A stretch of 64,000 nt of DNA from Pelagibacteraceae bacterium AG-349-O05 (GCA_003281005.1 QCDE01000005.1:5829-69828); one strand, 5' to 3'; counted from the stretch's first letter, positions 3,872 to 33,229 are shown. The notes: generated by a model not told the origin, from the sequence alone. A program made the numbers and translations.

Positions 3872-3875
3872 TTTA

Positions 3876-3932
3876 CTCCTTTTTTAGTGCTTCAACATTA
3901 TGTTAGGCGCACAATACAGTTCAAATGCCTAC
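3876..3932 (-). ncRNA. SAM-V riboswitch overlapping the metY ribosome-binding site
   Basis: Minus strand GUAGGC-AUUUGAACUGUAUUGUGC-GCCU-AACAUAAUGUU-GAAGCACUAAAAAAGGAG: P1 AGGC/GCCU, pseudoknot UUGUGC/GCACUAA, ending at GGAG 4 nt before ATG; matches the SAM-V consensus as I recall it. Confidence 0.9.
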
Positions 3933-3956
3933 CGACTTTATCAATTTTGTGAAATT

Positions 3957-6261: not shown

Positions 6262-7550
6262 GTAAATTAATTAATATTGCAGTAGTAGGACTTGGTCAGG
6301 TTGGTAATTATTTGCTAAACGAACTTAATACAAAAAAGAAAGATATTGAGCTTAAAACAGGTAAGAAAATAAATGTAGTGGCTGTATCCGCAAGAAGTAT
6401 TAATAAAAAACGAAAATTTAAAGTTAATAAAAAAATATTTTACAAAAATCCTTTAGAAATTTTTAAAAAAAATAAAATTGACATATTGTTTGAAGCCATA
6501 GGTTTATCAGATGGAATTTCTAAAAAAGTTGTAGAAACTGCTTTAAAAAGTAAAATCCACGTTATTACACCTAATAAAGCTTTAATATCAAAACACGGTA
6601 ATGAGTTAGCAAAACTTGCAGAAAAAAATAAAGTTAATTTGGAATTTGAAGCATCAGTTGCTGGAGGCATCCCGATATTAAGATCTATTAAAGAAGGATT
6701 AGCAACAAATAAAATATCTAAGGTTTATGGAATTCTGAACGGTACCTCAAATTATATTTTATCTGAAATGGAAAATTCAAATCAAAATTTTGCTGACGTT
6801 TTAAAAAAAGCACAGATACTTGGTTATGCTGAACCTGGTAATCCAAAATTAGACTTAAATGGTTTTGATGCATTTGCAAAAGTAAGAATTTTGTCTGCTT
6901 TAGCCTTTAACAGTAAAATTTCAAAACATAAGTGTTTAATGGAAGGAATAGAAAAAATTGAATTAAAAGATATTAAAATTGCAAATCAATTAGATTTAAG
7001 AATAAAGCTACTGGGAATTTCTGAGTTAAAGAATAATCATCTTTTTGAAACAGTTCATCCATGTTTGGTTAGTAAAAAATCTTATATTGGTAATGTTAAC
7101 GGTGTAATGAATGCAGTTATTCTCCAAGGTAAACCAGTTGGAGAAAGTGTATTACAAGGGGAGGGAGCTGGACCAGGTCCTACTTCTTCATCATTACTAT
7201 CTGATTTATTATCGATTTTGCGTGGTAATATAAAAAAACCTTTCGGTGTTAGTGTTTCTAAGCTTAAATCTTTAAAGCAATATAATGTAAATAATTATGT
7301 AAATTCATTATATTTAAGATTTGAAGTAAAAGATAAGCCTGGTGTATTATCCGAAATAACTAATCGTTTAGCTAAATACAAAATTTCAGTTAAAAGGCTA
7401 ATTCAAACACCTGATAAGAAAAACAATAAGGCAACAATAGTTATTATAACTCATAAAACAACTGAAACTAATATTCATAATTGCTTGTCTATTTTCAAAA
7501 AAAATAAAAATATTTTAAAAACACCAACATTAATTAGATTGCTTAGTTAA
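6258..7550 (+). CDS. hom: Homoserine dehydrogenase with C-terminal ACT domain
   Basis: GLGQVG, EASVAGGIP, GILNGTSNYIL, GYAE, GAGPGPT; DKPGVL ACT start. Confidence 0.95.
   Translation: MSKLINIAVVGLGQVGNYLLNELNTKKKDIELKTGKKINVVAVSARSINKKRKFKVNKKIFYKNPLEIFKKNKIDILFEAIGLSDGISKKVVETALKSKIHVITPNKALISKHGNELAKLAEKNKVNLEFEASVAGGIPILRSIKEGLATNKISKVYGILNGTSNYILSEMENSNQNFADVLKKAQILGYAEPGNPKLDLNGFDAFAKVRILSALAFNSKISKHKCLMEGIEKIELKDIKIANQLDLRIKLLGISELKNNHLFETVHPCLVSKKSYIGNVNGVMNAVILQGKPVGESVLQGEGAGPGPTSSSLLSDLLSILRGNIKKPFGVSVSKLKSLKQYNVNNYVNSLYLRFEVKDKPGVLSEITNRLAKYKISVKRLIQTPDKKNNKATIVIITHKTTETNIHNCLSIFKKNKNILKTPTLIRLLS
7158..7165 (+). other. KOPS-type octamer GGGGAGGG (within hom)
   Basis: Exact GGGNAGGG match on + strand, pointing towards the putative terminus. 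Confidence 0.35.
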
Positions 7551-9314: not shown

Positions 9315-9574
9315 TAGTAAATAAATAGTTACTAATATATAATTTAATACTTTAGATTATTTAATTAAACTATTGTAATTATTAAGTTTTTTATTATATA
9401 ATATAAAGATAAATTAATACAAAATATCCAATTAATAACTATTATTTTAAATAGTTAAAAGCAAAAATAGCAATCATAATACAGAAAATAAACCATAATA
9501 CTTAAAAGTGTTTAATACCAATGGTTTTATTAGCAAATTAAACACAAAATTTAAAAATTCTTATTTTAATAAGT

Positions 9575-9582
9575 GGGTAGGG
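9575..9582 (+). other. KOPS-type octamer GGGTAGGG
   Basis: Exact GGGNAGGG match inside a very AT-rich intergenic region, 150 bp before the dif-like site. Confidence 0.45.
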
Positions 9583-9731
9583 GGACAAAAATTTTTAAAA
9601 TTCAATGAAATTTGACACTAAATTTAGCCCTGGGATCATTGAAAAGTAGAGCAATGCAGTTATAGAATATATGTTTTAAACGCCCATAGAGGTGCTTTAT
9701 TTTGTTATATCTCGATATATAGCACAACTGA

Positions 9732-9759
9732 AGCGTGCATAATACCATTTATGCTAAAA
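9732..9759 (+). other. dif-like tyrosine recombinase site (11-6-11)
   Basis: AGCGTGCATAA-TACCAT-TTATGCTAAAA vs E. coli dif GGTGCGCATAA-TGTATA-TTATGTTAAAT; GCATAA/TTATGC inverted core; located near the gene-orientation switch. Confidence 0.55.
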
Positions 9760-9828
9760 TACGCTTAAATATTGAAAAAACGTTGATTTTACAAGTATTT
9801 TTGACCATAAAATAGGCCAAAAAAGCCA

Positions 9829-10098
9829 CTAAATATCAACTTTTTCAGATCTCAATAAGCGCACCTTTGTCTTAATTCCGCCTCTGCCTGAGTATCCACC
9901 AAGGCCTCCATCGGACCGTATTACTCTATGACATGGTATTTTGGGGGCATAAGGGTTTTTTCCACATGCATTAGCTACAGCACGCGCTGATTTAGGGCTT
10001 TTTATAGCTATTGCAACCTGTTTATAGGTTTTAAGAGTGCCTTTTGGTATAGTTTTAAGGTAATTCCAGACTTTTAATTGAAATTTAGTTCCTTTCAT
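9829..10098 (-). CDS. Minimal methylated-DNA-protein-cysteine methyltransferase (MGMT/Ogt C-terminal domain only)
   Basis: FQLKVW...IPKG..KTY, ARAVANAC..NP, IPCHRVI (active-site Cys), GGYSG; ATG at 10098 overlaps the upstream TGA. Confidence 0.9.
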   Translation of the reverse strand: MKGTKFQLKVWNYLKTIPKGTLKTYKQVAIAIKSPKSARAVANACGKNPYAPKIPCHRVIRSDGGLGGYSGRGGIKTKVRLLRSEKVDI

Positions 10099-10301
10099 CA
10101 ATAAAAATTTAATATAATGAAGCAGATTAAAAAGAAAACAGTTAAAATTGAAAGATAAATAGTTTCCAGTGTTTTTCCAGATTTTCTATAATTAATAAAG
10201 CTTAATATTGCAAAACCTAAAGATGTTATTAAGAAATATATCGGTTCAATTACTCCGTCTATGCCCATATTTAAATAATATTTCATACTTATTGTCCACA
10301 C
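10098..10301 (-). CDS. Small hypothetical membrane protein (2 TM); start may be 10286 or 10268
   Basis: Two hydrophobic segments; TGATG stop/start overlap with the MGMT gene suggests translational coupling. Confidence 0.55.
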   Translation of the reverse strand: MWTISMKYYLNMGIDGVIEPIYFLITSLGFAILSFINYRKSGKTLETIYLSILTVFFLICFIILNFY

Positions 10302-10341
10302 AATGCCATTAATTGTCCTTTAAATTTATAAATTATTTTAT

Positions 10342-10370
10342 TTGACATTATAAAACACTTGATATATTAC
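10342..10370 (+). promoter_or_regulatory. Putative sigma70 promoter of the recombinase
   Basis: Perfect TTGACA at 10342-10347; AT-rich -10-like region at about 10363-10370 overlapping the inverted repeat. Confidence 0.45.
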
Positions 10371-10400
10371 TAACGATAATTAATTGTTATCAATAATAAT
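10366..10400. repeat. Imperfect inverted repeat; candidate cognate site of the adjacent recombinase
   Basis: ATTACTAACGATAA-TTAATTG-TTATCAATAATAAT: 11 of 14 arm positions complementary, GATAA-N7-TTATC core, ends 3 nt before the ATG. Confidence 0.6.
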
Positions 10401-10403
10401 GAT

Positions 10404-11357
10404 ATGAATGAATTAACTACAGACTTAAAAATCCTTCATGAGGCTACATTAGAAAATTTAAGGAGCTCAAAGGCTAATAATACATTAAGAGCTTATAAAT
10501 CTGACTTTAAAGACTTTGGAGCTTTTTGTTCTAAGCATGGATTAAGCTCATTACCAACTGAGCCCAAAATAGTTTCACTATATATGACCCATCTTTCTAA
10601 AAACTCAAAATTTAGCACACTAAGAAGACGTCTTGTGTCAATTAGCATGTTTCATAAATTAAAGGGGCATTATTTAGACACAAAACATCCGATAATTGTT
10701 GAAAATTTAATGGGTATAAGAAGGGTTAAAGGTAGCATTCAAAAAGGTAAAAAACCTATATTAATCAATCATTTAAAATTAATAATTAATTCAATTAATG
10801 ATCAAAATATAAATGAAAATAAGAAACTAAGAGATAAAGCGATAATGCTAATTGGTTTCGGAGGTGGTTTTAGACGAACAGAGCTAGTATCTATTGATTA
10901 TGAAAATTTAGAATTTGTTCCTGAAGGTCTTAAAATTACTATCAGTAAATCAAAAACAGATCAATTTGGTGAAGGAATGATTAAAGCGCTGCCCTATTTC
11001 AGTAATGAAATTTATTGTCCCGTTAAAAACTTACAAAAATGGTTAGAAATTTCTAAAATAAAATCTGGACCTATATTTAGAAGATTTTCAAAAGGTTTAT
11101 TACTAACGGAAAAGAGACTAACTGACCAAACTGTGGTTTTATTAATGAAAGAATATTTAAATTTAGCAGGTATAGAAAATAAAAATTACGCTGGTCACAG
11201 TTTAAGATCAGGTTTTGCAACAGTAGCGGCTGAGTCGGGTGCAGATGAACGAAGTATAATGGCAATGACAGGGCACAAAACAACACAAATGGTTAGAAGA
11301 TATATAAGAGAAGCAAATTTATTTAAAAACAATGCGTTAAGAAAAATTAATATTTAA
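10404..11357 (+). CDS. Cre-like tyrosine recombinase/integrase
   Basis: N-terminal NTLRAYKSDF..F core-binding domain; catalytic R (GGFRRTEL), K (KSKTDQ), HxxR (GHSLRSG), H (TGHK), Y (VRRY); SKTDQ.GEG is typical of Cre-like integrases. Confidence 0.92.
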   Translation: MNELTTDLKILHEATLENLRSSKANNTLRAYKSDFKDFGAFCSKHGLSSLPTEPKIVSLYMTHLSKNSKFSTLRRRLVSISMFHKLKGHYLDTKHPIIVENLMGIRRVKGSIQKGKKPILINHLKLIINSINDQNINENKKLRDKAIMLIGFGGGFRRTELVSIDYENLEFVPEGLKITISKSKTDQFGEGMIKALPYFSNEIYCPVKNLQKWLEISKIKSGPIFRRFSKGLLLTEKRLTDQTVVLLMKEYLNLAGIENKNYAGHSLRSGFATVAAESGADERSIMAMTGHKTTQMVRRYIREANLFKNNALRKINI

Positions 11358-11363
11358 AAATTA

Positions 11364-12965
11364 TTATTTTTTAACAATAAAATCGTTTAAAACTAAAAAA
11401 TCTATATTAAATTTTCTAAAAGTATTTAATGCATCACTGGGTGTTTCGACTATTGGTTCTTGTTTGTTGAATGAAGTGTTGAGCAAAACTGGTATACCAG
11501 TTTTAAAATAAACTGACTCGATCAATTGATATAAAAAAGCATCGTGCTCTTTTTTTATAATCTGTGGTCTTGTAGAATTATCTATATGATTAACAGCATC
11601 TAATTTTTTACGCCAGTTTTGTTTAATATATGCGCTAGTTGTCATATAGGGTGAATTTTGGATATAATCATCAAGAATTTCATCTGCAAACTTATCTAAA
11701 ATAATTGGGGCATAAGGTCTATACCATTCTCTATTCTTGATTTTAAAATTTAAATAATCTCTACCTTTGTTGCTATCTGGAACACACATAATACTTCGAT
11801 GTCCTAGTGCTCTAGGACCACTTTCACTTCTACCTCTAAACATACAAATAACTTTTCTTTCAGATAAATAATCAGAAATTTTATCCACAGAAGATTTCTC
11901 AAAATTTAGTTTTTTTTCAAATTTTAAAATTCTTTTAATAAAAAAATTATTCCTCTTAATAGCCTTTAATGTTTGTGAACTGTTATAATTTGGACCTAGA
12001 TAAGGTGAAAAAAAATTTGTCTTTTTTGTATTATTTAAAATAACATGCCAATGATATAATCCCATACCTACAGCTAGACCAGTGTCATTTGGAAATGGAG
12101 GAATATGCAATTTTTTATAATTAGATTTTACCCTAGAATTTGCAACACAATTTAGGGCAATACCACCCGCGAGACATAAATTATTATTAGGATAGATTTT
12201 ATATATATTATCATAAATTTTTTTAAGTTCTTTCTCGGTTATTGATTGCAACGAAGCAGAAACATCCTTACTTCGTATACTTTTGTCATCAGATAAATCC
12301 TCATCATAATTAAATGCAGAGGCTCTTTTATCAGTATATTTTTTATTTGGTCCTAATTGCATTGTTTTTTTAAGCAAATTTTCAATAATGTTTGATGGCT
12401 TTCCATAAGCAGCTAAAGCCATTATTTTACCAGCGCCCGAACCAGGGTCCCATTTATGTATACGCTTCATTCTAAAATTATTAAGGGTTATACTTGACCA
12501 CCAATCTGCTATATTGGTAACAATTTTAGTTTCAAATACATTTATTTTATTGCCAACTGCTGTTGCAACAGAAAAATTTTCACTATCCCCTCCTCCGTCC
12601 TGAGTTATTATTGTTGCGTCTTGAAATGGAGAAGTAAAATAAGAGGAAGATACGTGACAAAGATGATGATTTAAAGCAAAAGCAGTTTTGTTGTTTATTT
12701 TGAATTCGACGCATTTATCATCATTAGTACTTGGAACTTTCCATGGGGGTTTTCTTTTATAACATTGTTTATTAGTTATAATAAAATCAATTTCTTCAAA
12801 TTTTAAATTACACAATTTTAAACTTTTGTTCAAAAATTTTTGATTAAATCCATAATCGTGTTTAATTCTGGAAAATCTTTCTAATTCCCAATTTAATATA
12901 ATTTCACCATTCTTAATTATACATATTGCAGCATTATGACCATTATATAAAGATAAGGAAATCAT
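11364..12965 (-). CDS. Carbamoyltransferase (NodU/CmcH/TobZ family)
   Basis: ELERFSRIKH, HHLCH, DGGGD, GKIMALAAYG, AGGIALNCVAN, ESGPRALGHRSI, IKNREWYRPYAP, LLNTSFN..EPIVETP. Confidence 0.93.
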   Translation of the reverse strand: MISLSLYNGHNAAICIIKNGEIILNWELERFSRIKHDYGFNQKFLNKSLKLCNLKFEEIDFIITNKQCYKRKPPWKVPSTNDDKCVEFKINNKTAFALNHHLCHVSSSYFTSPFQDATIITQDGGGDSENFSVATAVGNKINVFETKIVTNIADWWSSITLNNFRMKRIHKWDPGSGAGKIMALAAYGKPSNIIENLLKKTMQLGPNKKYTDKRASAFNYDEDLSDDKSIRSKDVSASLQSITEKELKKIYDNIYKIYPNNNLCLAGGIALNCVANSRVKSNYKKLHIPPFPNDTGLAVGMGLYHWHVILNNTKKTNFFSPYLGPNYNSSQTLKAIKRNNFFIKRILKFEKKLNFEKSSVDKISDYLSERKVICMFRGRSESGPRALGHRSIMCVPDSNKGRDYLNFKIKNREWYRPYAPIILDKFADEILDDYIQNSPYMTTSAYIKQNWRKKLDAVNHIDNSTRPQIIKKEHDAFLYQLIESVYFKTGIPVLLNTSFNKQEPIVETPSDALNTFRKFNIDFLVLNDFIVKK

Positions 12966-12995
12966 AAAATAAAATAATTAATTTTAATTTAAACT

Positions 12996-14441
12996 TTAAG
13001 GAAAATTAATGTGTTCAACATTATTATCTAATTTAATTTTATTTTTATCATAATTATAATTAATTAGATCTTTAACTTTTTGATTATTTTTCATAAATAA
13101 ACATGCTGAACAATTATCCTTTGGATCAAAAAATTTTTTCCATTTTTCAGTATAAAGTTTTTCAACCTCATCATTTGTAACAGTCCCCCATTTGGATGGA
13201 TTAAATTTTCTTTCTGCATCACTATTTGAATTTTCTTCCTCTAAAACAGTTACAGAATCGCAAGGATAACAGTATGATTTTTTGTTTGTTTCATGACCTG
13301 TGGTGTCCCAAAAAACATTATAAGTTTGAAGAAAACATTTACCTTCATCCCATAAAATATTAGCTTCATCTTGGGTACCATGAAATTTCAACTGATGAAA
13401 AAACCTATCAATATTTTTACCATCTTGGTCTATAAAATTTAAATTTCTTAATTTTTTTGATAATTCTTTATGTGATTTAAGTTGTTCAGTTCTGCCCAGA
13501 TTACAATCTGTTAAAAATCTCACATAATTTACATCCCACTTCAAAGAAGTGTCTCTCAATCTTTTTAAAAATTCTTCAGATGTCCAAGCACCATAAACAT
13601 AAGAAAGACCAAATGTAACATCTGAGTCTAAAATATTTTCTGGTATTCTTTGTAAATTAAATTTTTGCTCAGGATAGAATGGTGATGCATCTTCAGGAGT
13701 TATAGATAATCGAATCCATTTAAATTTGTTATAAATTTTATCTTCAACTTTTGCTGGGAAACCGTTAGTAATTAACCCTAGATCTATATCTAATTTACTT
13801 AACCATTCTACAAATTCTGAAAAATGAGGCCATAAATTTGGCTGACCCCCACCCGAAAGAATTAAACCTTTTAATCGAATACTTGAGCCATGAATTTTTT
13901 TATACTCGTTATTATATTTTTTGAAATGCTTTTCATTAAAATCTGCTTGATGAAAATACAGTTTTTTCACAAAGTCTTTTGCCTCATCAAGTGATATACT
14001 ATCTTTTTTATTTCTATTGATTGTTGAGCAAAATTGACATCTAGATGAGCAAACTTGATGCAGTGTAAGTGTTGCTCTAATTATGCTTGAATAACCAGTG
14101 TCTTTTAATTTTGAAAAGATTGGCCAATGATGATCTAATTTATGGCCTGTGCTAGTAAAATTAATTTCTTTTTCTTGAAGTTTATGAGTAATATCTCTAG
14201 GTGAAATGGGAACATTGTCATTATTATCTACAACTATAAATCCTTCAGTTATACCTTTTTTTTGAATAGACCTAATTATTTCATTGGAATTATGCTCAGT
14301 AATATTATGTCTTTGTGTTATTCCATTTTTATCTCTTTTTAAAAAAGTACGATGTATAGCAAAATGTTTTGCTTTATTTAAGGATCTTACTCTAATAAAA
14401 AAACCTTTTCGGTCTGTATCTTTAATTATTTCATATTTCAT
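12996..14441 (-). CDS. Radical SAM protein with C-terminal Cys-rich (SPASM/twitch-like) region
   Basis: CSSRCQFC (CxxxCxxC), ILSGGGQP, LITNG; C-terminal C...CYPC...CSAC. Confidence 0.85.
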   Translation of the reverse strand: MKYEIIKDTDRKGFFIRVRSLNKAKHFAIHRTFLKRDKNGITQRHNITEHNSNEIIRSIQKKGITEGFIVVDNNDNVPISPRDITHKLQEKEINFTSTGHKLDHHWPIFSKLKDTGYSSIIRATLTLHQVCSSRCQFCSTINRNKKDSISLDEAKDFVKKLYFHQADFNEKHFKKYNNEYKKIHGSSIRLKGLILSGGGQPNLWPHFSEFVEWLSKLDIDLGLITNGFPAKVEDKIYNKFKWIRLSITPEDASPFYPEQKFNLQRIPENILDSDVTFGLSYVYGAWTSEEFLKRLRDTSLKWDVNYVRFLTDCNLGRTEQLKSHKELSKKLRNLNFIDQDGKNIDRFFHQLKFHGTQDEANILWDEGKCFLQTYNVFWDTTGHETNKKSYCYPCDSVTVLEEENSNSDAERKFNPSKWGTVTNDEVEKLYTEKWKKFFDPKDNCSACLFMKNNQKVKDLINYNYDKNKIKLDNNVEHINFP

Positions 14442-15103
14442 TTAATATATTTCGAATTTAGAATAAAGAATCCATTACCTAATTTATTGTACTTGTACCA
14501 TTTGTCTTTAATACCATCAACTTTGTAATTAATTTCTTTAAGTTGAAATCCATTATCTTCAAATAATTTTGTCCACCATTTTTCATTTTCAATAATTATG
14601 TGCGTTTTATCCATATGGTATTGTTTTATTCTATATTTTGAATTATCTCCAAGTGGTACTATTACAAATAAATTTTTTGAAATTTTTGACAATTGATTGA
14701 TAATAAATTTTAGATCTTTTTTATTAATATGTTCAAAGACATCTTTGGATATTGTCCAATCAAAGTACTTCTTTTTTAAATTTAATTTTTTTAAAGCATT
14801 TTTTAATTTATTATCTTTTATAACAGCTAATCTTCTTTTAATATCTACTGGACAATTATTAATTGCATAATTTGAAATATCAACACCATAAGAATTAACA
14901 CCGAAATCTTTTAGACATTTAACTAAATATCCATTGGCACAACCATATTCTAGAATGTTCGAATTTCTTTCAAGGTTTAGAAAATCATAAAAAGCGTGAG
15001 CCATTGGATATGTTAATTCTGGTATCCATCTGTAGTTCTCATAACAGCTTATACCTTTGGCTATTCCATCTGTAAAATAATCTTTATTGAATAAATTTTT
15101 CAT
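14438..15103 (-). CDS. Class I SAM-dependent methyltransferase
   Basis: ILEYGCANG motif I, GVDIS, DVFEHI. Confidence 0.88.
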   Translation of the reverse strand: MKNLFNKDYFTDGIAKGISCYENYRWIPELTYPMAHAFYDFLNLERNSNILEYGCANGYLVKCLKDFGVNSYGVDISNYAINNCPVDIKRRLAVIKDNKLKNALKKLNLKKKYFDWTISKDVFEHINKKDLKFIINQLSKISKNLFVIVPLGDNSKYRIKQYHMDKTHIIIENEKWWTKLFEDNGFQLKEINYKVDGIKDKWYKYNKLGNGFFILNSKYIK

Positions 15104-15931
15104 CTATTTTAAAAATTGAAAGTATTTATAAGGTATTTTATACCTAAAAGCTCTTTTGATCTTATGTTGAAATCCTTTGCTAATTTCTAAATTTTCTAGA
15201 TTCTCATTCCAATTTAACCATTTTTTTTCATACCAATTTTCATCAGGTTCAGAGTCACCAATAACTTTGGAAAATGTTATAGCCATTAAATGCTTATAAA
15301 ACATAGTATTTTCATTAATTGAAAAACCAAGATTCAAAGTAGTTACAAAAGTTGAGAGTCTTTTTGATCTACAAGATGGTTCACCACCAAAATGAGTATT
15401 TATTTTTTTATTATTTTTAATTTTCCACAAGACTGGACCTACTCTTTTTTTTCTTAAGGGAATTCTATAGGATTTATTTGATTTTAAAGATTTATTAAAT
15501 TTCCAAATTTCAATCTGTCTTGATGAAATATGATTTGTCCAAAATTTTAAGTTCAATTCAAGTTTTAATAAATTAAATTGATTTTTTCCAAAAATCATAT
15601 CAGGTTCGATAAATAATATATATTTTGGTTTAATCTTAAATTTTTTGATAACAATTTCAAAAAGTTTTCCAAACTGATTTTTAGGACTATTACATTCATA
15701 ATTAAAAGAAAAAATTTTTTTGTGCTTCAGTTTATTAATGATAAATTCTTTAACATTTTCAGGATTTTTTGGAAAATTAATGTATTTATTTTTATATTTT
15801 ATTTTATCAACCACTACCCATGGTTTTTCAGAATAAAAAATTACTATCTTATCAACATCATTTATTATTGAATTAATTGACTCCAATAAAAAATCTATAC
15901 CATAATGAATTCTATAAATTGCAATTTTCAT
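15104..15931 (-). CDS. Hypothetical protein, probable GT-A-fold glycosyltransferase
   Basis: N-terminus YRIHYGIDFLLESINSI..VDKIVI resembles GT2 strand/helix 1; YILFIEPDM at the DxD position. Confidence 0.5.
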   Translation of the reverse strand: MKIAIYRIHYGIDFLLESINSIINDVDKIVIFYSEKPWVVVDKIKYKNKYINFPKNPENVKEFIINKLKHKKIFSFNYECNSPKNQFGKLFEIVIKKFKIKPKYILFIEPDMIFGKNQFNLLKLELNLKFWTNHISSRQIEIWKFNKSLKSNKSYRIPLRKKRVGPVLWKIKNNKKINTHFGGEPSCRSKRLSTFVTTLNLGFSINENTMFYKHLMAITFSKVIGDSEPDENWYEKKWLNWNENLENLEISKGFQHKIKRAFRYKIPYKYFQFLK

Positions 15932-16026
15932 TCAAATAAGTTTATAATTTTACTTTTTTAAATTAATAAATTAACTCTTAAACTTTGATTTAAACAGATA
16001 TCTCTATTATCAATAAAATACTAAAA

Positions 16027-17277
16027 ATGAAAAAAAAAAATAAACTTATTCTTATTGAAAGTGAGATGATAGGTCCACGTGGCCATTTTCTAGACAATTT
16101 AATTGAAACAACTAAAAATTTTGAGAAAAAATTAGATGTATATTGGATTGTAAATAAAAGATTTAATAATGAAGGGACTTATTTACCAAAAAATATTAAA
16201 ATTATTAAAACTATAGAAAGTAACTTTTTCAAAAGAAAAATTAATAAAATATTTTACGTTTTTGAAGAAATATTTTTTTTTATAAAAAATTTTTTTTGGA
16301 TAGTTTATTTTTTAATTCTATTTTCAATAAATGGTAACTTTAAATTATTTTTAAAAGCTCTTAGATCAAATTATTTTATTTTACCAAGATATTTTAGTTC
16401 CTTTTATAAACAATACAAAATATTGAAACTTTCACCTAATGATAACGTTTTTTTTCAAACCGCGAGAAGAAAGGATATTGCATTAGTTAATTTTCTTATA
16501 AAAATTGATAAAAATCATCCAAAGTTTCACATAAGAGTTATGCTGCCTCCTAAAATTAAATTTAAAGGTTTTTTTTATTATTTAAATTTATTGAAAAATG
16601 AAATGATAAATAACAAACTATTTATTTATACCTGGAGTACTTATAATTATAATTATTTTTTAAAAAACAGTTTAACTAAAAAAGGTATTTATAAATCAAA
16701 TATTCCCTGGTCTTTTCACAAAAGGAATTCAAAAAATAAAAATCTTGTGATTGGTTTCATGGGTGATGCAAGAAAAGCTAGAGGTTTTCATCAATTACCA
16801 AAGATAATTAAAATTTTAAAAAAAAAAAAATATAATTTTAATTTTATAATACAATTTTCTAAAGTTACCGATGATTTATTAAAAACTAAAAAAGAATTAC
16901 TAGATTTATCAAAAAAAGATAAAAGAATTCATATAATTGAAAAATATTGTGATTATAAAGAATTTAGAAATATTCTTAAAAAAATTGACATAATGCCAAT
17001 TATTCATAGTGCAAAAGAAATTAACAAAATCACATCTGGCACAATGTACTCATGTATATCTAATGAAATAGCTATTGTTATACCGTCTGGTACAAGTTTT
17101 ATGAGTGAAATTATGAAATATAAATCTTATGAAAAAGCAAAAAATATAAATGATTTTGCAAAAAAAATTATTAAAATTTCTAAAAATTACAATTTTTACC
17201 GAAGAAATGTTAAGCAAAATTCTTTAATTTTAAAAAAACTTTTAGAAAAAGATCCTCTTAGAAAATATATTACTTAG
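16027..17277 (+). CDS. Probable GT-B-fold glycosyltransferase
   Basis: N-terminal GPRGHF; C-terminal GFMGDARKARGF, ILKKIDIMP, TSG; glycan-gene context. Confidence 0.6.
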   Translation: MKKKNKLILIESEMIGPRGHFLDNLIETTKNFEKKLDVYWIVNKRFNNEGTYLPKNIKIIKTIESNFFKRKINKIFYVFEEIFFFIKNFFWIVYFLILFSINGNFKLFLKALRSNYFILPRYFSSFYKQYKILKLSPNDNVFFQTARRKDIALVNFLIKIDKNHPKFHIRVMLPPKIKFKGFFYYLNLLKNEMINNKLFIYTWSTYNYNYFLKNSLTKKGIYKSNIPWSFHKRNSKNKNLVIGFMGDARKARGFHQLPKIIKILKKKKYNFNFIIQFSKVTDDLLKTKKELLDLSKKDKRIHIIEKYCDYKEFRNILKKIDIMPIIHSAKEINKITSGTMYSCISNEIAIVIPSGTSFMSEIMKYKSYEKAKNINDFAKKIIKISKNYNFYRRNVKQNSLILKKLLEKDPLRKYIT

Positions 17278-18535
17278 TGTTTTTTCCTATTTGAACCAGT
17301 TCATGATCGATGTTTGTTGATGGCATATATCTCCATGGATCTATTACTAAAGCACCTTTTAAAAATTTCATTTTTGTAAAATAATCATGTTTTGTAGCTA
17401 CAAAAAAGGTTTGTGGAATTGTTTCCCAGTTGTATAGCTTGGAATATTTTTCATAGTCACCATCTGTATATGGATCCCATTGGTTAACATTGGCTCCTTT
17501 TTCTTCTAGTAGATTTTTTAACAAAATTGCTGGACTGCCTAATGTTAAATTAGTTTCTGCTTTAAAGGTTTTACCCAGAATATTTATAGTTTTACTATTT
17601 GTTTTTTCCATGATTAATTCAGCTAACCAGTTAGTTTGATTTTCTCGTTGTAGCATTATGTTTTCAAACCAATTATGTGATATGTTGAATTTTTTGGATA
17701 AATAGCTCATTGCAATATTATCACGAGGATGACAACCACCACCATCACCCATTCCTCCCGACATATAAGCTCCAGAAATCAATCTAGTATTAGCCATTTT
17801 TAATGCATTAGTTACTTCATCTACGTCAGTATTTGGAAGATGGTAGCACATTTCCATTAGAGTATTAGTAAATGATATTTTAGTAGATATCATTGTATTG
17901 TATGAAACTTTTATTAGTTCAGCGTTTTCTATTGTTGTATCATATATTGGTGCTGAACTTATTGTCTTATAAAAGTCCTTTCCTATTTTTAAAGCTAACT
18001 CATCATCACGTCCAAATAACACAAATTCTGGATTTAAAAAATCTCGCATTGTCGAGCCCATCGCTATAAAGAAAGGATTGTATACTAGTTTGGTGTACTT
18101 TCCTAATAGAGGCTTAATTTCTCTAGTGATTGTTCCAGGTAATACTGTGGATATTATTATAACCACCTTGTCTTTTTTTTGTTTTTCTATTTCATCACTT
18201 AAAGTTTTAACTCCTTTTTTTAGAAAACTGTAATCAAAATCAGCCCTTTCTTCAGGTATTCTTGTTATACCCTCATACTTTTCATGATGTGGTGTTTGTA
18301 TTGGTACAAAAATAATATCTGATTTTTTAACCAAATTTTGTATATCTAAAATTTCAATTTTAGAATTTGGCAGATAATCTTCAACCCAAATCTCTTTGTA
18401 ATCAATAACTTTATTTTTAATATTTTTAATTGTTTTTTCAGATATATCGTATCCAAACACGTTATGACCTTTGCTTTCAGTGGCTAATGCAACTGGTAAA
18501 CCTAATTTACCTAATCCTAAAAAACCAATATTCAT
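17270..18535 (-). CDS. UDP-glucose/GDP-mannose dehydrogenase family protein
   Basis: GFLGLGKLGLP, ISTVLPGT, AELIKVSYN, GGGCHPRD catalytic Cys, LGKTFK. Confidence 0.9.
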   Translation of the reverse strand: MNIGFLGLGKLGLPVALATESKGHNVFGYDISEKTIKNIKNKVIDYKEIWVEDYLPNSKIEILDIQNLVKKSDIIFVPIQTPHHEKYEGITRIPEERADFDYSFLKKGVKTLSDEIEKQKKDKVVIIISTVLPGTITREIKPLLGKYTKLVYNPFFIAMGSTMRDFLNPEFVLFGRDDELALKIGKDFYKTISSAPIYDTTIENAELIKVSYNTMISTKISFTNTLMEMCYHLPNTDVDEVTNALKMANTRLISGAYMSGGMGDGGGCHPRDNIAMSYLSKKFNISHNWFENIMLQRENQTNWLAELIMEKTNSKTINILGKTFKAETNLTLGSPAILLKNLLEEKGANVNQWDPYTDGDYEKYSKLYNWETIPQTFFVATKHDYFTKMKFLKGALVIDPWRYMPSTNIDHELVQIGKNTK

Positions 18536-18638: not shown

Positions 18639-20747
18639 TTATTTATTTTCCCAAAAAAATTTTTCTTTATTTTTTAGATGAAAAGTTTTGTTAATTATAT
18701 AAGAAGCAACTTTAATTGAATTCATATATTTATGGTATTTAATCATGCCTCGTTTAGAAATAGTTTCTCTTTGTTTGTCCAAATTTTTATATTTCATTAT
18801 TTTTTTAGACAGATCATTTAAATTTTTATAGAATACAACTTCTTTATTTGTAAATATTTTATTCAAGCCGGTTTTTAAGTCAATAAAAGTTAAAATTCCA
18901 TTACCTATTAGTTGAGCAATCCTATCACTTGAATAAAATTTTAATGGTTTGCCCTGACTTAAATTTAATGCCATTTTAGATTTATTTAATTCTGATCTAA
19001 AATTTTCTGCCCATACAGGTTGTTTATTATTTAAACCGAATAAATTAAACCTTACTTGATCATTTAAATTAACTAATTTTTTTACAAATGTTTCCCTCAA
19101 GTCAATTTTACCTTTTTTTAAAGTTCCTCTATGAACACCGTGTGATAAGGCAAAAAATAAATCATATTTGAAATTTCTATTTTTATAAATTTTTAAATTT
19201 TCGAATGAACTATCAACTGGATTAGGGATAAATTTAATATTACGTCCTTTAAAACCATCGATTATTGATGGGTGAGTTGTGCAGAAACTAGCATCCATTA
19301 AACTAAGTTTTTTTTCAAATCTTTTTTTATTAACTAACCATTTATTATTGTCCATCTTATCTAAAAACCACTGACAAAATTTTATACTAGGATAGAATTC
19401 TCTAATTTTGATTATTGTTTCATTTAAAATCTGATCTGCGTGACCAAAAATTATAAGATCTGGATTAAAATTTCCAACCAATTCTATTAGTTTGCTATTT
19501 AATGATCTGGATCCTGTTATATCAAAAACCTTTCTTTCTCTACTTACCACATCTCTATCACTTAAAGTTTGAATAGTATGCCCAAGTTTTAAGATACCAT
19601 TATTTATTCTACGTCCTGTGTTATAGAATAGTCTTCCATTATGTCTTTCATTAAAATTTGTTATATGAATTATTTTTAATTTTTCTTTATTAATCTTAAT
19701 ATCACCACGAAGTTTATTTCTATAATTATCTATTTTAGAAGAAATAAATTTGTTATCTAAATAAAAATTTTTTAAAGAGTTTTTTTGAATTTTTTTCATT
19801 TTTTTTTTATTTACAATTAAATCTTTAATTGACCTGTAAAGTTCAATTGTAGTTAATTTTTTTAAAATTATACCGTCAGTAATAGTTTCAGGTAATCCAC
19901 CTCTATTACTAATTATTACAGCACAACCTCTGCTACTCGCTTCTAAACTAGATCTACCAAAAGGCTCATCCCATCTTGCACAAGAGATTGATATAGAACT
20001 TCTTTTCAAAATATTTAATACTTTATCATGGGGCTGGTATCCTAAATTTTTTAAACGACTATGTTGAAATGTTATTCTTTCCCTTGGTTCATCACCAAGT
20101 ATTAAAGCATTCCACTCTTTAAATTCATTTAAAATTTTTAAAATTGATGTGCCAAACAAATCATACCCTTTTGATTTATTTAATTTTCCTACAAATGTTA
20201 TAATTTTTTCCTTTTTTGATAAATTAATTTTTGCTTTACTAGTGGATTGAGGTATTACCTCAACTTTTTCACTATTATAGTAGAATTTACTCAATTCTGA
20301 AAAAAACCTATTTTTCGTCCATTCACTATTAAAAATAATTTTCTTGCAAAATTTTAATATAAAAATTCTTTCTGAAACACTTATGGAGCCACTCATTGTT
20401 AAAGGATCATTATGAAAATAAAAAACAAATTTTCTATCTTTCAATTCTGAAAAATACTTTAAATATAAAGGTCTATTATGTATTTCTATTATATCTGATT
20501 TTCTTTTTTTTTCTAACTCAATAAAATTATTTACATAAATTTTAGATGAGCTTTGGTATATTTTTTTTTTATAAGGAATATTTACATAATTTTTTGATAG
20601 ATAATCTTTATAATTTGTATTTCCATAAATTTTTATAGATGATTTAAATATACTCTCTTTATTAACACTATGTACAAAAATGGACACCGCACCTGCATAA
20701 TTTTTTGTAAAATTCTCTTTATAAGGAAGTAAAATAGATATTTTCAT
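18639..20747 (-). CDS. Two-domain glycosyltransferase (GT4 plus second GT-B/CgeB-like domain)
   Basis: FVGKL..SKG and EPFGRSSLEA (EX7E) in N-half; LNLSQG....YSSDR in C-half. Confidence 0.85.
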   Translation of the reverse strand: MKISILLPYKENFTKNYAGAVSIFVHSVNKESIFKSSIKIYGNTNYKDYLSKNYVNIPYKKKIYQSSSKIYVNNFIELEKKRKSDIIEIHNRPLYLKYFSELKDRKFVFYFHNDPLTMSGSISVSERIFILKFCKKIIFNSEWTKNRFFSELSKFYYNSEKVEVIPQSTSKAKINLSKKEKIITFVGKLNKSKGYDLFGTSILKILNEFKEWNALILGDEPRERITFQHSRLKNLGYQPHDKVLNILKRSSISISCARWDEPFGRSSLEASSRGCAVIISNRGGLPETITDGIILKKLTTIELYRSIKDLIVNKKKMKKIQKNSLKNFYLDNKFISSKIDNYRNKLRGDIKINKEKLKIIHITNFNERHNGRLFYNTGRRINNGILKLGHTIQTLSDRDVVSRERKVFDITGSRSLNSKLIELVGNFNPDLIIFGHADQILNETIIKIREFYPSIKFCQWFLDKMDNNKWLVNKKRFEKKLSLMDASFCTTHPSIIDGFKGRNIKFIPNPVDSSFENLKIYKNRNFKYDLFFALSHGVHRGTLKKGKIDLRETFVKKLVNLNDQVRFNLFGLNNKQPVWAENFRSELNKSKMALNLSQGKPLKFYSSDRIAQLIGNGILTFIDLKTGLNKIFTNKEVVFYKNLNDLSKKIMKYKNLDKQRETISKRGMIKYHKYMNSIKVASYIINKTFHLKNKEKFFWENK

Positions 20748-32238: not shown

Positions 32239-33229
32239 TTTTAAATTTATCTTTTAATGTACAAACAGCTAAAGCAAATCGCAATGACCTATTCCATTTT
32301 AATATTATCTCATAGTTATCAAAAACTATGTAAGCTGGATTTAAAGTTTCGGCATCTGGTATAATATCCTTATCTGGGGTTATAATTGCTACATTAAAGG
32401 AATTATACTTGTTATCAATTTGATCATTATTTTTGATATATTTTCTAAAATATTTTAATTTTTTTTTATCATGTAGTTTTTTTGCAGAAATATTTAGATA
32501 TTTACTTGGGATGTTGTCTGATAAATCAATTCTATAAAAACAAGGATTCTCACTTATCCAACCTATTTTATTTAAATAGTTTGATGCAGAAGCATAAGCA
32601 TCATTATTATTTTTTAAATCAATATAACCGTTGCCATCATAGTCAATTGCATAATTTTTCATTGTTGAGGGCATAAATTGAAAAAATCCAAAAGCCCCTG
32701 CCCAAGATCCATATAATGATTTATAATCTATTTGTTCATTTTCTATTAATCGTAAAAGTATTAATAATTCGTTTGTAAAAAATTCTGATCTTCTTTTGTC
32801 AAAACTTAAGGTTGCTAAAGAGGATAAAATATCCATTTTACCAACATAGGTTCCAAAATTAGTTTCAATTCCCATTAAAGCTAATAGTAACTCTCTATCT
32901 ATACTAAATTCGTTTTCAATAGAATTTATTAATTTTGAATTTTTTTCATAGAATTTTTTTCCTGAGGAAACTTTTTTGGAGGATGTTCTTTTTGAAATAT
33001 AAGTTTTAGTATCCTCGTAAAATTCGGGTTGGTATCTATCGTATTTTATTACATCTGATAAAAATTTAGTATTGGACATAGCAATATTAAATGTTTTTTC
33101 TGAAATATTATTTTCTAGTGCTATTTTCTTAAAATTTAGTTTCCAATTTTCAAATTCTTTATTAATATCTGCAAATGAGCTGTTGATAGAAATTATAATA
33201 AAAACTAAAAAATAATTAATTTGTTTCAT
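32228..33229 (-). CDS. Lytic murein transglycosylase (MltB/Slt35 family)
   Basis: DRYQPEF, GIETNFG catalytic Glu, GSWAGA.G..QFMPS, WNRS. Confidence 0.92.
   Translation of the reverse strand: MKQINYFLVFIIISINSSFADINKEFENWKLNFKKIALENNISEKTFNIAMSNTKFLSDVIKYDRYQPEFYEDTKTYISKRTSSKKVSSGKKFYEKNSKLINSIENEFSIDRELLLALMGIETNFGTYVGKMDILSSLATLSFDKRRSEFFTNELLILLRLIENEQIDYKSLYGSWAGAFGFFQFMPSTMKNYAIDYDGNGYIDLKNNNDAYASASNYLNKIGWISENPCFYRIDLSDNIPSKYLNISAKKLHDKKKLKYFRKYIKNNDQIDNKYNSFNVAIITPDKDIIPDAETLNPAYIVFDNYEIILKWNRSLRFALAVCTLKDKFKNEL

Follow-up and report, generated by a model that had tools for sequence, protein, structure and literature searches.

In streptococci and lactococci (XerS/difSL) and in Helicobacter and Campylobacter (XerH/difH), a single tyrosine recombinase acts at a site beside its own gene (PMC5357621). 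XerL of the Legionellales is a divergent single recombinase that homology searches had missed, and its site, which has long and nearly perfect arms, is mimicked by a mobile element (PMC9765430). Here we analyse a locus that resembles these systems, in a 64,000-nucleotide stretch of Pelagibacteraceae bacterium AG-349-O05 (GCA_003281005.1 QCDE01000005.1:5829-69828; called the window, with coordinates counted from its first letter). The locus consists of a gene for a Cre/TnpS-like tyrosine recombinase (10404–11357, + strand) and a 35-bp inverted repeat directly upstream (10366–10400, + strand), which we predict to be its recombination site and the equivalent of dif. Judging from sequence comparison, it is quite probable that a plasmid-derived enzyme has been domesticated here as a single-recombinase system with a predicted function in chromosome dimer resolution. 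An original prediction, made from the window alone, had proposed such a role for a Cre-like enzyme at the replication terminus, and the checks that can be computed support it.

Like XerS/difSL and XerH/difH, this module pairs a single enzyme with a gene-adjacent site at the terminus and replaces XerCD/dif. It differs from them in protein length (317 amino acids against about 356) and in a 7-bp core, as opposed to the 11-bp centre of difSL. Profile comparison places the enzyme outside the XerC, XerD, XerS and XerH families: it scores 64 and 74 bits against XerC and XerD cut-offs of 335 and 330, and 40.7 bits against an XerS cut-off of 267, while XerH gives a profile expectation value (E) of 1.7e-8, as compared with 6e-13 for Cre, and template modelling (TM) scores of 0.55–0.61. 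With XerL/dif the module shares its divergence from known recombinases, its long arms and the mimicry of its site. Unlike it, the XerL of L. pneumophila (Lpg1867) has 408 residues and lies more than 400 kb from its site (PMC9765430), and a comparison by eye finds no SKTDQ motif in its first 400 letters. The module likely works in the manner of XerS/difSL, but with an enzyme outside the XerS, XerH and XerCD families, and our best reading is that it is unrelated in origin to XerS, XerH or XerL.

Among enzymes of solved structure, Cre of phage P1 is the nearest. All top Foldseek matches of the predicted model (predicted local distance difference test score 83) are Cre, with TM scores of 0.75–0.77, and the model suggests a Cre-like two-domain fold without an arm-binding domain. 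Palindromic arms, GATA by the core and a site beside the gene are also features of active Cre-type pairs (PMC10250229). Unlike Cre, to which it is 18–20% identical, the enzyme is encoded by a chromosomal core gene rather than by a phage or plasmid, has His at the position of Trp315, and acts, as we predict, at a site whose centre is odd in length in all 69 loci, 7 bp or, if counted between 13-bp arms, 9 bp, rather than 8. The Cre-like character that was first proposed therefore holds for the structure, whereas by sequence the nearest relatives are plasmid integrases (34–45% identity; 1760 records at E ≤ 1e-15) and TnpS-like resolvases of Tn4651-type transposons, one of which, encoded beside an annotated tnpT, is 28% identical (E 4e-39). 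Unlike the TnpS/TnpT arrangement, the divergent neighbour here is ogt, with no tnpT or transposase among the neighbours in 20 loci (no genome-wide tnpT search was made), and no similar repeat was present in the one tnpT–tnpS gap examined.

A survey of 2009 listed Pelagibacter ubique as lacking dif and Xer and attributed this to genome streamlining (PMC2731167). Pelagibacter is not named in the available main text of PMC3025954, PMC8138268 or PMC10250229; the last predicts about 500 recombinase–site pairs, requiring an 8-bp spacer, and its list could hold this enzyme. With PMC9865509 and PMC7111524 also compared, we found no description of the system in the literature searched, in which coverage of subscription journals is limited, and it is apparently undescribed.

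The recombinase gene and its predicted site

The host genome is AT-rich, about 1.1 Mb in size and 87% complete, and the 317-residue product of 10404–11357 (PF00589 and PF02899) is its sole PF00589 match. The residues R157/R158, K184, H265, R268, H291 and Y300 are invariant in 24 of 24 aligned proteins, which share 56–100% identity. The claim of a lone recombinase with an intact catalytic set is thus borne out, and so is that of an inverted repeat abutting its start codon. This repeat consists of a left arm (10366–10379), a core (10380–10386) and a right arm (10387–10400), ending three bases before the ATG; the arms are 14 bp each, complementary here at 11 of 14 positions, and the core, TTAATTG, is asymmetric. 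It occurs in 69 of 72 loci, once per genome and this genome included, and the other three lack upstream DNA. The 72 loci are not a random draw, being the best-scoring matches of recombinase searches together with 20 chosen stretches.

Across the 69 sites the core is TTAATTG in 34, TTAATGG in 30 and another sequence in five. Column identity is 0.92 for the site, as compared with 0.68 for the promoter spacer, and the core is as conserved as the arms. A weight matrix detected no second copy in this genome (G000) or in the closed genome G094, where the next best scores were −0.6 and 1.4 bits against about 51 for the site. The repeat is therefore a non-coding, palindromic terminus sequence of about 30 bp that is unique as far as two genomes show, with whole-chromosome skew coming from one.

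The left arm also overlaps a predicted promoter (10342–10370, + strand), which has a −35 box TTGACA at 10342–10347, a 17-bp spacer and a −10 box at 10365–10370. The pattern TTGAC(A/T)-17-TA and the overlap of the −10 box by the left arm recur in 69 of 69 loci. We infer that enzyme bound at the arm would block the −10 box and thereby autorepress. It could be that the repeat is nothing but such an operator, while the enzyme uses another site or does a different job at the terminus, such as helping decatenation or stopping FtsK; resolvase sites do commonly hold promoters (PMC7157771). However, an operator has no need of an asymmetric core conserved like the arms, nor of a place at the skew maximum or at the position that dif occupies in related bacteria (see below), and the invariant active site and the lack of a second site in the two genomes scanned also speak for recombination here. 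We consider the operator-only explanation improbable.

In public sequencing data, no run contains half of the query words. Parts of the gene and promoter are matched at 85% likeness by contigs from three RNA runs, but neither transcription nor its level can be read from this.

Position at the replication terminus

The original prediction placed the locus at a switch in gene polarity, which the counts confirm. Of open reading frames of at least 120 codons, nine lie on the + strand and one on the − strand to the left of 11357, while 37 − and 9 + lie to the right of 11364, and the cumulative GC skew of the 74-kb contig is maximal at window position 11661. In 37 of 38 closed genomes of known length, dnaA and the gene are separated by 0.40–0.49 of the chromosome. 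In G094, the cumulative skew maximum falls at 675,249 (raw) or 673,576 (detrended), 0.6–1.1 kb from the site at about 674,680, so that on this chromosome the skew inverts within about 1 kb of it.

The FtsK-orienting polar sequences (KOPS) converge on the same place. Two GGGNAGGG octamers had been noticed pointing at the locus, at 9575–9582 (+ strand) and, within a gene named hom by eye, at 7158–7165 (+ strand; common to three relatives). Both are confirmed, and two more point back from the other replichore, one at 32696–32703 (− strand) and a fourth that falls outside the window. Of 305 KOPS counted across 20 of the 45 closed genomes, 254 point to the gene, and the 18 that lie within 10 kb of it, where 4.6 were expected, all do so; p-values for these counts are overstated, related genomes not being independent. 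When a shared word is excluded, in 10 of those 20 genomes, 97 of 110 KOPS (88%) point toward the gene versus 62 of 115 (54%) for the reversed octamer, and the 21 near KOPS have 16 different flanks.

A further line of evidence comes from the sister family, the other family of the same order as the host family, the Pelagibacteraceae (SAR11). There, a canonical dif pattern is found in 11 of 16 genomes (12 matches), and the skew flips across it in four of four longer stretches. Nine of the 12 matches are identical in sequence and lie directly beside a homologue of a window gene at 18639–20747 (− strand; glycosyltransferase-like, named by eye), which is the only match of that homologue in this genome. 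In the Pelagibacteraceae, this marker gene is oriented toward the recombinase in 20 of 20 larger stretches and is directly adjacent in seven. As the same gene stands beside the dif of one family and the recombinase of the other, the module sits where dif sits in the sister family. In three loci (L079, L081, L082) there are inversions near the site, with flanking core genes flipped or relocated to the opposite side, while gene, site and marker remain together.

Between recombinase and marker lies an island of strain-variable surface-modification genes (11364–18535; a carbamoyltransferase, a radical SAM protein and others named by eye). The content directly 3′ of the recombinase stop codon differs among nearly all relatives, and the distance to the marker varies from 0.9 to 8.2 kb, which might suggest that the enzyme is the integrase of this island, capturing or swapping cassettes. 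However, the recombinase gene lies between the island and the site, and the island is not bordered by a second site copy. In addition, 7 of 20 loci lack the island while retaining gene and site, so that this explanation is very unlikely.

Distribution of the recombinase and of XerC/XerD

We surveyed 225 genomes of at least 90% completeness for PF00589, with the present genome added; 211 belong to the Pelagibacteraceae and 13 to the sister family. A match is present in 195 of the 211 (193 of 209 without the unpublished G065 and G089), exactly one in 149 by hand count, and none is better than 8e-27. In the sister family all 13 genomes have Xer-grade matches at 2e-44 or better, and 12 have two. 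Among single-contig genomes, the Cre-like gene is found in 45 of 45 from the Pelagibacteraceae, in four genera (two carry it in two pieces), and a XerD model at 1e-26 finds nothing in these 45 versus two matches each in four of four sister-family genomes. In three genomes of the latter family, XerD and XerC are the best-scoring models for the pair, although below the curated cut-offs, the sequences being partial. No close copy of the Cre-like enzyme was detected among 24 sister-family genomes (at most 31% identity). The Cre-like module and XerCD are thus mutually exclusive, and the Pelagibacteraceae lack XerCD but conserve a single tyrosine recombinase whose catalytic residues are intact.

The other expected components are in place. 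The FtsK gamma domain is present in 16 of 16 genomes, including 10 of 10 Pelagibacteraceae, and is nearly the same as in the XerCD-bearing sister family, with no clear difference between the two; recA is also present.

The occurrence of the nearest relatives on plasmids, the two split copies, and the 2009 listing of P. ubique as lacking dif and Xer (PMC2731167) would be compatible with a stranded plasmid relic kept by hitch-hiking, in cells that manage without dimer resolution. Yet the gene is kept in 45 of 45 closed, streamlined genomes, its catalytic residues are invariant down to 56% identity and its site is conserved at 0.92, so that a relic is very unlikely indeed.

The original prediction also offered a dif-like 28-mer about 600 bp upstream as a recombination site. 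The 28-mer is present, at 9732–9759, but does not exceed chance expectation. It makes up the variable tail of a conserved block of non-coding DNA, and its ATAA-N6-TTATG core is kept in just 4 of 34 homologous stretches, so that no conserved 28-bp dif of the 11+6+11 form is found here. That it might be the crossover site, or an ancestral dif relic still in use, is scarcely credible: its side of the locus is indeed where a former dif could remain had the module inserted beside the marker gene, and it is the sole genome match of its own tight pattern (chosen after the 28-mer had been seen), but it matches the sister-family dif arms at 13 of 22 positions, which 47 of 72 ATAA-N6-TTATG matches in the same genome equal or better, and there is no XerC or XerD to bind it.

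The block itself (9635–9830) lies between the convergent genes eamA and ogt and is probably not part of the crossover site. It is nearly gap-free and single-copy, and it occurs in 58 of 67 upstream stretches. A search of Rfam found no match to it, IMES-2 included, and an alignment of 24 + strand sequences gave no consensus fold. Integration host factor-like words have a density of only 0.92 per kb there as compared with 0.52 genome-wide. Conservation is also seen, more weakly, at about 9320–9420.

Two probable specificity types

The enzyme and its site vary together. Type A, to which the enzyme of the window belongs, combines a 12-residue loop near residues 226–237 with type A arms in 58 proteins; type B combines absence of the loop with TTCCGATAA arms, changed on both sides, in 10. 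There is no exception among the 68 proteins (68 rather than 69 loci, as one gave no whole open reading frame). This co-variation, although indirect, is the best evidence that the protein would read this site. Genera g1, g9 and g12 each contain both types, a pattern suggestive of module swapping.

In a quick tree long branches meet and no plasmid donor is singled out. Of 10 plasmid loci, three have a similar repeat upstream of the integrase gene, two of them with a 7-bp core. These are perfect 13–14-bp inverted repeats, with cores of 7, 7 and 6 bp, before uncharacterised integrases on plasmids L155, L397 and L154, respectively, and are candidate recombinase–site pairs of the same family.

Proposed mechanism

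We propose that RecA crossovers would fuse sister chromosomes into dimers, and that FtsK at the septum would read the converging KOPS and pump DNA until the sister sites meet. Two enzyme molecules on each site, four in all, would then cleave at the core boundaries and carry out strand exchange in two successive steps in the manner of Cre, with the asymmetric 7-bp core setting the direction. The enzyme may keep itself scarce through autorepression. In E. coli, loxP in place of dif recombines without FtsK, while dimer resolution needs the FtsK C-terminus, and loxP at dif without that C-terminus may create dimers (PMC2965235). Autorepression would limit that risk. The module probably originated on a plasmid and took the place of xerC, xerD and dif in the ancestor of the family; today it is found in two specificity types crossing genus borders.

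Several observations weigh against this reading. An operator role alone explains the promoter overlap. With regard to position, in G086 (L073, contig C1, ~662 kb) the gene and dnaA are only 0.14 of the chromosome apart and KOPS polarity is broken, the genome being either rearranged or a mis-ordered assembly; whole-chromosome skew comes from one genome only, G094, in which other G-rich octamers show the same degree of polarity as KOPS. With regard to distribution, 16 of the 211 Pelagibacteraceae genomes of at least 90% completeness have no PF00589 match, and 7 of these are also negative by protein search; all 16 are fragmented and do not establish absence of the gene. In closed G116 (C1, 571 kb) and G122 (C1, 595 kb) the gene is in two pieces, for which a frameshift or sequencing error is a candidate cause. 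A preprint credits Arctic Pelagibacterales with XerC and XerD (10.64898/2026.10.07.757358), in conflict with both the PF00589 and the XerD-model surveys; these are probably automatic annotation labels. Finally, XerA and XerD outrank Cre in a single-sequence search, and in the quick tree nine of the 10 type B proteins group in a single clade, so that the match of loop and arms may represent one or two events rather than ten.

Site copies in pelagiphage-like viruses

Copies of the site are also found in viruses. Both type A arms are matched in 59 viral contigs and a type B site with a host-like core in 27, giving 85 different contigs, of which 84 carry a marker shared with SAR11-type phage sets (the site-bearing loci, contigs and isolates, are L160–L245, L378, L379 and L394). 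In 73 of 73 with a terminase in reach, the site lies 188–1178 bp (median 357) from the terminase start, with the gene pointing away, and 47 terminases are at least 55% identical to those of HTVC010P, HTVC023P or HTVC027P. A type B neighbour accompanies 30 of the 59 type A copies, so that both types often stand in tandem. The host core is found in 5 of the 59, and core length is 6, 7 or 8 bp. Among 14 named Pelagibacter phage records, clear copies (24–26 of 28 arm bases) occur in HTVC100P, HTVC035P and Greip and weaker ones in seven; the patterns used found no copy in HTVC010P, HTVC023P, HTVC027P or the integrase-bearing HTVC028P, and a stray match to the core turned up in one of three control records. 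The type B motif on its own is not specific to SAR11, as 50 of 120 viral loci carrying it have a GC content of at least 0.38.

The recombinase was also considered as a phage gene and rejected, with seven phage records at no more than 30% identity and one fragment in viral contigs. None of the 86 site-bearing viral loci, taken as fetched stretches rather than whole contigs, contains it, and none of nine matches of a first viral pattern lies beside it, one of these having a full-arm site nearby.

In carrying copies of a host terminus site and no recombinase of their own near it, these phages resemble the integrative mobile elements exploiting Xer (CTX phage, LME-1). They differ from them in that the host core is found in just 5 of 59 type A copies and no phage–host junction was seen: none occurs in the 85 viral contigs, no site is interrupted in the 69 host loci, and a metagenome scan for junctions gave two unrelated and uninformative matches. 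The few host cores and the lack of junctions do not indicate integration. A parallel exists in phage P1, where the site at which Cre circularises the genome lies near the packaging start. The free core sequence points away from integration and to recombination of phage by phage (circularisation or concatemer resolution) or to plain binding, and copies whose core is 6 or 8 bp long may be inactive in recombination.

An integrase-free subgroup of pelagiphages has been called obligately lytic, in a paper whose available text mentions no such site (PMC8477408), and we found no packaging mode for the site-bearing phages in the literature. Whether the phages use the host enzyme is, in our estimate, an even question. 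If they do, the enzyme may serve to circularise the phage genome or to split its concatemers, or it may be drawn off the terminus by titration, and a phage keeping one site of each type by its packaging genes would be served by either host enzyme. More tentatively, one might envisage an in-place replacement of XerCD/dif by a plasmid-born, two-type enzyme that was then hijacked by "strictly lytic" HTVC010P-/HTVC023P-like pelagiphages, the most abundant in the ocean, host type switching being an escape from phage in an arms race over an enzyme of chromosome segregation; we regard this fuller scenario as possible but rather doubtful.

Neighbouring features

The ogt-like gene (PF01035; 9829–10101, − strand) is missing from 6 of 20 larger loci and is therefore not part of the module. 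Between it and the promoter is a short unannotated stretch (10110–10310, − strand) that varies among relatives. In agreement with the original prediction, no phage, transposase or conjugation genes were found among the open reading frames listed in 1–24000, as read by eye (the Pfam scan covering six proteins). An Rfam search of 1–30000 gave only two tRNAs and a SAM-V riboswitch, a known family, at 3873–3939 (− strand), directly upstream of a metY-like gene. At 309–984, 9.5 kb from the site, an ihfA-like gene is followed by a MerR-type helix-turn-helix gene (by eye), which is presumably the gene order of Caulobacter zapT. In Caulobacter, ZapT is a terminus-binding linker to the divisome.

Significance

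The locus provides a precise terminus marker for SAR11 genomes and a testable enzyme–site pair with a built-in specificity swap, namely the 12-residue loop versus the outer bases of the arms. It also points to candidate recombinases with an odd-length core that would be missed by screens for 8-bp spacers, and raises the testable possibility that very abundant marine phages lacking an integrase depend on the host. For the biology of Pelagibacter, it fills a stated gap, the genus having been listed in 2009 as without dif and Xer (PMC2731167). If our reading is true, dimer resolution by one enzyme would have arisen independently once more, and the Cre/TnpS branch would have its first natural example on a chromosome, a counterpart of the strain engineered to carry loxP for dif.

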